DNA of 64,000 nt from Escherichia coli (GTDB lineage Bacteria > Pseudomonadota > Gammaproteobacteria > Enterobacterales > Enterobacteriaceae). Made by a program: the position numbers and the translations under genes. The DNA lies in the NCBI RefSeq assembly GCF_030013205.1, contig NZ_CP122648.1. The stretch is one strand, 5' to 3'. Shown here piece by piece: positions 38,896 to 39,671 of the stretch. The notes below the pieces were generated by a model. The model searched no databases, was not told where the DNA came from, and saw only the letters and a list, made by a program, of their open reading frames with translations. The stretch's first letter is position 1. The number at the start of each line of letters is the position of its first letter.

Positions 38896-39671
38896 ATGAA
38901 TAACGATGTTTTCCCGAATAAATTCAAAGCCGCACTGGCTGCGAAACAGGTACAAATTGGTTGCTGGTCAGCACTCTCTAACCCGATTAGCACTGAAGTT
39001 CTTGGTTTGGCTGGGTTTGACTGGCTGGTGCTGGATGGCGAACATGCGCCAAACGATATCTCCACGTTTATTCCGCAGTTAATGGCCCTGAAAGGCAGCG
39101 CCAGCGCGCCAGTAGTGCGAGTGCCGACCAACGAGCCGGTAATTATTAAGCGTCTTCTGGATATCGGTTTTTATAACTTCCTGATTCCTTTTGTAGAAAC
39201 AAAAGGAATCAGGAAGCAGAGCAGGCGGTGGCATCAACCCGTTACCCACCGGAAGGCATTCGAGGCGTCTCCGTTTCTCACCGCGCCAATATGTTTGGCA
39301 CCGTGGCGGATTATTTCGCTCAGTCGAACAAGAACATCACCATTCTGGTCCAGACAGAAAGTCAGCAGGGCGTAGATAACGTCGATGCCATTGCCGCTAC
39401 CGAAGGCGTAGACGGTATCTTCGTCGGCCCCAGCGATCTGGCTGCGGCATTGGGCCATCTCGGCAATGCCTCGCACCCGGATGTACAAAAAGCAATTCAG
39501 CATATTTTTAACCGTGCCAGTGCGCACGGCAAACCCAGCGGTATCCTCGCACCGGTCGAAGCCGATGCGCGTCGTTATCTGGAATGGGGTGCGACGTTTG
39601 TGGCTGTCGGCAGCGATCTCGGCGTCTTCCGCTCTGCCACTCAGAAACTGGCTGATACCTTTAAAAAATAA
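38896..39671 (+). pseudogene. garL: 5-keto-4-deoxy-D-glucarate aldolase gene interrupted by a +5 frameshift at a perfect palindrome (N-terminal part in frame 1 to stop at 39375; C-terminal part in frame 3 to 39671)
   Basis: ORF track splits GarL into 38896..39375 and 39228..39671 in different frames; junction at 39177..39216. Confidence 0.8.
39177..39216. repeat. perfect inverted repeat, 18-bp arms with 4-nt loop (cttcctgattccttttgt agaa acaaaaggaatcaggaag) inside garL
   Basis: Counted base by base in the sequence. Confidence 0.95.

Follow-up and report, generated by a model that had tools for sequence, protein, structure and literature searches.

The DNA analyzed here is a stretch of 64,000 nucleotides from the Escherichia coli contig NZ_CP122648.1 (the whole stretch is hereafter called the window), in which garL, the gene for an aldolase of sugar-acid catabolism, is present as a frameshifted pseudogene. 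The gene is identical across its 776 bp to garL entries of RefSeq that are flagged as "frameshifted", and its reading frame is broken within a perfect inverted repeat. The features of the gene and of the repeat are as follows.

38896..39671, plus strand: garL pseudogene (2-dehydro-3-deoxyglucarate / 5-keto-4-deoxyglucarate aldolase), 776 bp versus 771 bp in the intact gene
38896..39375, plus strand: truncated garL frame (frame 1), 159 amino acids (aa), stop codon at 39373-39375
39213..39671, plus strand: remainder of garL in its native frame (frame 3), Glu105 to Lys256 plus stop
39177-39194: left arm of the palindrome, CTTCCTGATTCCTTTTGT, the same as in the ancestral allele
39183-39187, plus strand: GATTC, bulged in the ancestral quasi-palindrome and the putative template of the insertion (DNA fold and alignments)
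39195-39198: hairpin loop, AGAA
39199-39216: right arm of the palindrome, ACAAAAGGAATCAGGAAG, i.e. ACAAAAG-GAATC-AGGAAG; ancestral 13-nt form, ACAAAAGAGGAAG
39206-39210, plus strand: inserted GAATC, the lesion, which splits codon Glu104

The product of the truncated frame consists of 103 native residues, ending in FVETK, followed by 56 residues read out of frame. Frame 3 is open from 39177 and ends at 39671, with its earliest start codon, a GTG, at 39228; the part of garL that it encodes is not reached by ribosomes starting at 38896. The segment 39177-39216 reads CTTCCTGATTCCTTTTGT-AGAA-ACAAAAGGAATCAGGAAG, and a repeat search found its arms to be 18 nt each, 100% complementary and separated by a loop of 4 nt. 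This is the longest perfect hairpin revealed by a hairpin scan of the window, the runner-up having a stem of 12 bp, and the maximal stems of 30 random Markov-1 windows measured 8-12 bp. The garL palindrome is far beyond chance expectation. An earlier note, made from the sequence alone, had placed the change of the garL frame inside a perfect palindrome with 18-bp arms at 39177-39216, and both the repeat search and the list of open reading frames (ORFs) confirm this.

To define the lesion, garL of the window and of three other genomes carrying the same allele was aligned with the intact garL of strain EC556, the nearest relative in which the gene is unbroken. The alignment contains a single gap, with GAATC present in the carriers only, and deletion of 39206-39210 makes the garL sequence exactly equal to that of EC556. 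The inserted pentamer lies between G39205 and A39211, so the change is a pure insertion with an unambiguous placement. The exact indel, which the earlier note had proposed to obtain by such an alignment, is thereby established. According to that note, "aa" stands in the intact gene at the site of the mutant "gaatcag"; the bases are in fact "ag", while the net change of +5 that it gave is correct.

The inserted GAATC (39206-39210) is the reverse complement of GATTC (39183-39187) and occupies the mirror position in the opposite arm. In the intact allele the region reads CTTCCT-GATTC-CTTTTGT / AGAA / ACAAAAG-AGGAAG, and GATTC is left unpaired in the left arm. Folded as single-stranded DNA, the intact allele has an inner stem of 7 bp adjoining the loop, a bulge formed by the 5 nt of GATTC, and an outer stem of 6 bp (-9.1 kcal/mol), while the mutant forms an unbroken stem of 18 bp (-19.9 kcal/mol); the corresponding RNA folding energies are -11.4 and -28.1 kcal/mol. 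The number of paired positions between the arms has thus risen from 13 in the ancestral allele to a perfect 18 in the mutant. As judged from alignment, the quasi-palindrome is unchanged in the garL alleles of EC556, K-12-type strains, O157, 118UI and ET745, in which all substitutions fall outside the arms.

The signature of quasi-palindrome-associated template switching has three elements, all present here: a repeat that was imperfect beforehand, new bases complementary to the opposite arm, and a product that is perfectly palindromic. On this basis we consider it very probable that garL was inactivated in this lineage by one such mutation. The same interpretation had been put forward in the earlier note, according to which the insert complements the upstream arm and perfects the palindrome. 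It is supported by the imperfect ancestral repeat, by the mirror relation of GAATC to the bulged GATTC and by the lack of a direct duplication. Tandem duplication was ruled out, since GAATC matches neither of the flanking pentamers.

The same dissimilarity bears on the possibility that the insertion was untemplated, or templated elsewhere (a random addition, slippage or a patch copied from a distant site), and completed the palindrome by coincidence. Other routes do generate small insertions, and the search for donors covered approximately 150 kb of carrier sequence. However, when every 5-bp insertion at every position of the intact garL was enumerated (593,152 distinct products), an 18-bp stem appeared in exactly one product, namely the observed one, and a stem of at least 12 bp in four, so the odds of such a coincidence are roughly one in 600,000. 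Moreover, within the searched sequence (the window and approximately 90 kb of strain ETEC4079), the sole other copy of the 11-12-mers spanning the insert is the left arm itself, on the opposite strand and approximately 12 nt away. A coincidental origin is therefore very improbable.

The distribution of the allele was determined in 5,426 complete E. coli genomes, using megablast with the 776-bp gene and short queries covering the junction. Fourteen genomes match all 776 bp at 99.9-100% identity; the next best matches, strains EC556, EC571 and EC581, extend over 771 bp. The mutant junction was found in the same 14 genomes and nowhere else in this set, and an intact 75-mer was matched at ≥95% identity in 5,387 of the genomes. 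The earlier note had suggested looking for the allele in related isolates, and these 14 complete genomes answer to that suggestion. It had also set against its own interpretation the case of an allele with an intact frame and a perfect palindrome; none was found among garL alleles with at least 95% identity across the junction.

All 14 carriers were isolated from pigs or wild boar. The carrier records that were opened are those of K_EC180 (South Korea), ETEC4079 (Belgium), ETEC6333 (the Netherlands) and W13-16 (France), and in each of them garL is annotated by RefSeq as a "frameshifted" pseudogene. Serotype and sequence type (ST) were available for two carriers, both of which belong to the O139:H1 ST1 edema-disease clone; W13-16 and P15-25 have been described as O139:H1 ST1 edema-disease strains sequenced with PacBio technology (PMC8798679).

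These records also bear on the possibility that the 5 bp are an artefact of sequencing or assembly and do not exist in the real genome. Hairpin-forming DNA can trouble some sequencing chemistries, and the evidence available here is at the level of assemblies. Nevertheless, the identical allele recurs in 14 complete genomes that were assembled independently, on different platforms and by laboratories in several countries, PacBio assemblies included, a 5-bp insertion outside a homopolymer is atypical of long-read errors, and the close relatives EC556, EC571 and EC581 carry the intact form. The chance of an artefact is in our opinion negligible. Programmed ribosomal frameshifting or another form of recoding was likewise ruled out, as the shift is +5 rather than +1 or -1, is confined to 14 of the 5,426 genomes, and the other alleles examined are uninterrupted.

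Over 25 kb, the window has the same sequence as ETEC4079 (100% identity). Its comparison with EC556 over the full 64 kb revealed 12 single-nucleotide polymorphisms (SNPs), the GAATC insertion and one 1-bp indel. A table of variants was compiled for 49 kb, in which polarity was set by the outgroup CFSAN018748, the next-closest genome. The insertion is absent from both EC556 and the outgroup, which identifies it as derived. Within the 49 kb, two sub-lineages of carriers could be distinguished: the window and K_EC180, united by four SNPs, and W13-16 and ETEC6333, united by one. Three SNPs are private to EC556, and every site agrees with a grouping in which the insertion arose once. One origin followed by clonal spread appears to be the parsimonious reading of this pattern.

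The second sub-lineage is marked by a T-to-C change at 39324, in the garL pseudogene downstream of the frameshift, which is present in W13-16 and ETEC6333 only.

Outside this clone, the same peptide at the insertion site was found, with a degenerate pattern in species-representative genomes, in Escherichia only, plus one probable contaminant contig. The contig is NZ_AEJF01000268.1, 475 bp long and labelled Caballeronia mineralivorans, in which the 75 bp aligned are identical to the K-12-type garL; it is most likely an E. coli contamination of a draft assembly. The potential for the +5 mutation appears to be general in E. coli, judging from the conservation of the repeat, though the mutation was seen in one lineage among the 5,426 genomes.

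Several variants of the repeat and of its surroundings were observed in other strains. In Escherichia sp. MOD1-EC7003 (L020:2328-2362) the inner 7-bp stem is kept through a paired synonymous change, CTTTCGT/ACGAAAG in place of CTTTTGT/ACAAAAG; this single case could be due to chance or to correction of an arm by template switching. The stem of the quasi-palindrome is degraded in the cryptic Escherichia strain E69. The garL gene of ET745 (NZ_CP100918.1), 765 bp long and annotated as intact, has an in-frame deletion of 6 bp (AGAGCA) directly after AGGAAGC. This deletion adjoins the quasi-palindrome; it has no connection with the +5 event but provides another indel at the same site.

In the mechanism that we propose, once a nascent strand has been extended as far as ...CTTTTGT AGAA ACAAAAG, its 3′ terminus would anneal to CTTTTGT in the left arm. 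This arm, which would then act as the template, could belong to the nascent strand, folded back into a hairpin, or to the sister template. The polymerase would copy GATTC as GAATC and run on into AGGAAG. Return to the correct template through the same AGGAAG would yield the +5 insertion and the perfect palindrome with 18-bp arms. The shift of frame after Lys103 leaves GarL without 153 of its 256 residues.

The orientation of garL with respect to replication suggests on which strand this happened. In E. coli, dnaA is located near oriC, with its transcription directed away from the origin. The ETEC4079 record begins with dnaA on the plus strand, and garL is located approximately 615 kb downstream on the same strand. 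The fork is thus expected to pass through garL in the same direction as RNA polymerase. Seven of the eight bins of the window have a positive GC skew. This orientation gives the nascent leading strand the sense sequence, and the right arm is made second on it. We infer that the switch took place on the leading strand, where the arm that is synthesized second is the one that was corrected. Had the fold-back taken place on the lagging strand, the expected outcome would be a deletion of GATTC from the left arm, i.e. a -5 product. In E. coli reporters the leading strand is the more mutable one for quasi-palindrome mutations (PMC7202029; PMC6357072). Such mutations are raised in these reporters by 5-azacytidine, azidothymidine (AZT), ciprofloxacin and enrofloxacin, and suppressed by RecBCD and the SOS response (PMC7202029; PMC6357072).

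The same hairpin could have served as the template by another route, namely fork regression, repair synthesis or a cross-fork switch on the lagging strand. Quasi-palindrome mutation becomes more frequent with fork regression and with recB defects and can affect either strand (PMC6357072), and the sequence of the product is compatible with all such routes; in particular, it cannot separate ordinary replication from fork regression. On the other hand, the co-directionality of garL with the fork, by which the corrected right arm is the one made second on the leading strand, argues against these routes. So does the absence of the -5 product: when an allele lacking GATTC in the left arm was used as a query, no genome matched it above the 93.3% expected for the intact allele. 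This comparison sets one event against none. We regard an origin outside leading-strand synthesis as possible but rather doubtful.

Some observations weigh against inactivation of garL by a single template switch and its clonal spread. The event itself is not observable, so the mechanism rests on the signature that it left, and the product cannot separate the two strands or an intramolecular from an intermolecular route. Apart from the insertion, no SNP in the 49 kb unites the carriers against EC556; therefore, a single origin is parsimonious but not proven. The mutant 38-nt junction had no match in metagenome contigs of the Joint Genome Institute (JGI), because of which support for the allele comes from isolate genomes alone. 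Finally, no report on mucate, glucarate or galactarate phenotypes of this lineage was found in the literature.

The intact GarL matches the structures of 2-dehydro-3-deoxy-galactarate aldolase (PDB 1dxe and 1dxf) over residues 1-256. The mutant protein keeps residues 1-103 of 256 and hence lacks the uninterrupted frame of approximately 256 aa of an HpcH/HpaI class II aldolase; the truncation of the enzyme claimed in the earlier note is thus real, with the frame lost after residue 103. Glu153 and Asp179 of the 1dxe structure, which we take to be metal-binding residues, lie beyond the break. The neighbouring genes of the pathway are arranged as follows.

35600..37171, minus strand: garD (galactarate dehydratase), intact, divergently transcribed
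37546..38880, plus strand: garP, intact, first gene of garPLRK
39701..40591, plus strand: garR, intact, 30 nt past the garL stop codon
40688..41833, plus strand: garK, intact

The proteins encoded by garP, garR, garK and garD have the same accessions as in EC556, and gudP, gudX and gudD are intact in ETEC4079. Knockout of garL in E. coli abolishes the fermentation of both glucarate and galactarate (PMC11775122). Because garL is truncated, its knockout abolishes the fermentation of both sugar acids and the other pathway genes checked are intact, the carriers are predicted to lose glucarate and galactarate as carbon sources at the shared aldolase step. With uptake and dehydration remaining, 5-keto-4-deoxyglucarate might accumulate in these strains.

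The frameshift also leaves approximately 325 nt of untranslated mRNA ahead of garR, on account of which polarity on garR and garK is possible. A scan for promoters and terminators detected no terminator-like site on the plus strand between 37200 and 41900, and no promoter-like site on the plus strand between garL and the garR start. The palindrome itself was rejected as an intrinsic terminator, since the hairpin is not followed by a T-run.

It may also be asked whether the allele was selected, i.e. whether the edema-disease clone of pigs benefits in its niche from being without GarL. The allele was retained while the carriers diverged into at least two sub-lineages, with isolates from both Europe and Asia, and the use of glucarate and galactarate has likewise been lost by Salmonella Typhi and Paratyphi A, which are host-restricted (PMC11077982). 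However, the insertion apparently arose once, in one clone, and was not seen to recur among the 5,426 genomes, which drift or hitch-hiking would explain equally well, and the intactness of the other pathway genes checked does not suggest a pathway-wide decay. Selection for the loss is, in our view, unlikely. More speculative still, and less probable, is a scenario in which the loss of GarL was selected in the O139:H1 ST1 clone, as in typhoidal Salmonella, and the event was perhaps promoted by replication-blocking drugs such as veterinary enrofloxacin; if true, it would provide a field example of drug-promoted template switching shaping the metabolism of a pathogen.

Mutations of this class are known from phage T4, yeast CYC1, the thyA and rpsL hotspots of E. 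coli and the 18-bp lacZ QP5/QP6 reporters (PMC7202029; PMC5941160). As in the mutations explained by the Ripley model (thyA, rpsL and the lacZ QP5/QP6 reporters of the Lovett laboratory), in garL an imperfect repeat has become perfect and the new bases complement the opposite arm. The resemblance to QP5/QP6 extends to the 18-bp repeat, the frameshift of a few bp and an orientation that matches the more mutable leading strand (PMC7202029; PMC6357072). Unlike the laboratory hotspots and reporters, the garL mutation arose in nature and has become fixed in a lineage of pathogens, and it adds 5 bp where the reporters score a change of -4 bp. Correction of the arms of inverted repeats has been described in Proteobacteria, also as a change from imperfect to perfect repeats among closely related genomes (PMC5941160). 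That study concerns non-coding repeats and statistical trends, whereas garL represents a single, gene-destroying event in a coding sequence with the exact ancestor at hand.

With regard to its consequence, the allele resembles the situation in Salmonella Typhi and Paratyphi A (PMC11077982), enteric pathogens in which the same pathway has been hit and most of its genes look intact. The Salmonella lesions are point mutations and pseudogenes in gudT, gudD and garD, while here one frameshift affects the shared aldolase gene and the phenotype is predicted. GarL is lost as completely as in the Keio garL knockout (PMC11775122). The latter is an engineered in-frame deletion, whereas the natural allele leaves a 159-aa fragment, an mRNA hairpin of -28.1 kcal/mol and the untranslated stretch of message described above.

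The mechanism is well known and the pseudogene was already flagged in RefSeq; no new mechanism or system is described here. Whole-word searches of the literature found no report of this garL allele or its origin, nor of a sugar-acid phenotype in O139 strains. The allele is an unusually clean natural case of a mechanism known mostly from laboratory reporters, in which sister lineages have preserved both the exact ancestral sequence and its descendant. The event occurred in a defined replication orientation and became fixed in an internationally distributed pig pathogen. The 5-bp insertion offers a simple means of recognizing a sub-lineage within the O139:H1 ST1 edema-disease clone, and it predicts a diagnostic phenotype (mucate/galactarate-negative and glucarate-negative). 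The conserved quasi-palindrome of garL constitutes a latent loss-of-function site in E. coli.

Other variation was noted in the window and in the related genomes. The second-longest perfect hairpin of the window, at 61064-61091, has a 12-bp stem (AAAAACGAGGAG TTTC CTCCTCGTTTTT) and, with the A and T runs on its sides, resembles a bidirectional terminator. According to the EC556 annotation, a transposase gene of IS621 (IS110-like) is located between mtr and yhbW, at coordinates corresponding to approximately 9930-10910 of the window. In yhaB (minus strand), the G-run at 43767-43772 comprises six G in the window and K_EC180, eight in W13-16, and seven in EC556, ETEC6333 and the outgroup; the gene is intact with seven G and is annotated as frameshifted in the K_EC180 and W13-16 records. 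The variation is due to ordinary homopolymer slippage, with more than one change within the clone. The rnpB gene (41866-42242) of ETEC6333 is one base short at 41970 (376 nt versus 377 nt elsewhere), which may reflect either true variation or a fault of the assembly.

Two further regions of ETEC4079 (975-1025 and 1070-1110 kb) contain a type III secretion cluster with several frameshifted genes and insertion sequences, which by its gene content resembles the ETT2 island of E. coli, as well as ygcG with an internal stop codon and a short CRISPR array. In the outgroup CFSAN018748, a related pig strain, agaD is split into two ORFs and agaE contains an internal stop codon. These lesions represent a separate decay of the N-acetylgalactosamine/galactosamine locus, which adjoins the gar genes.
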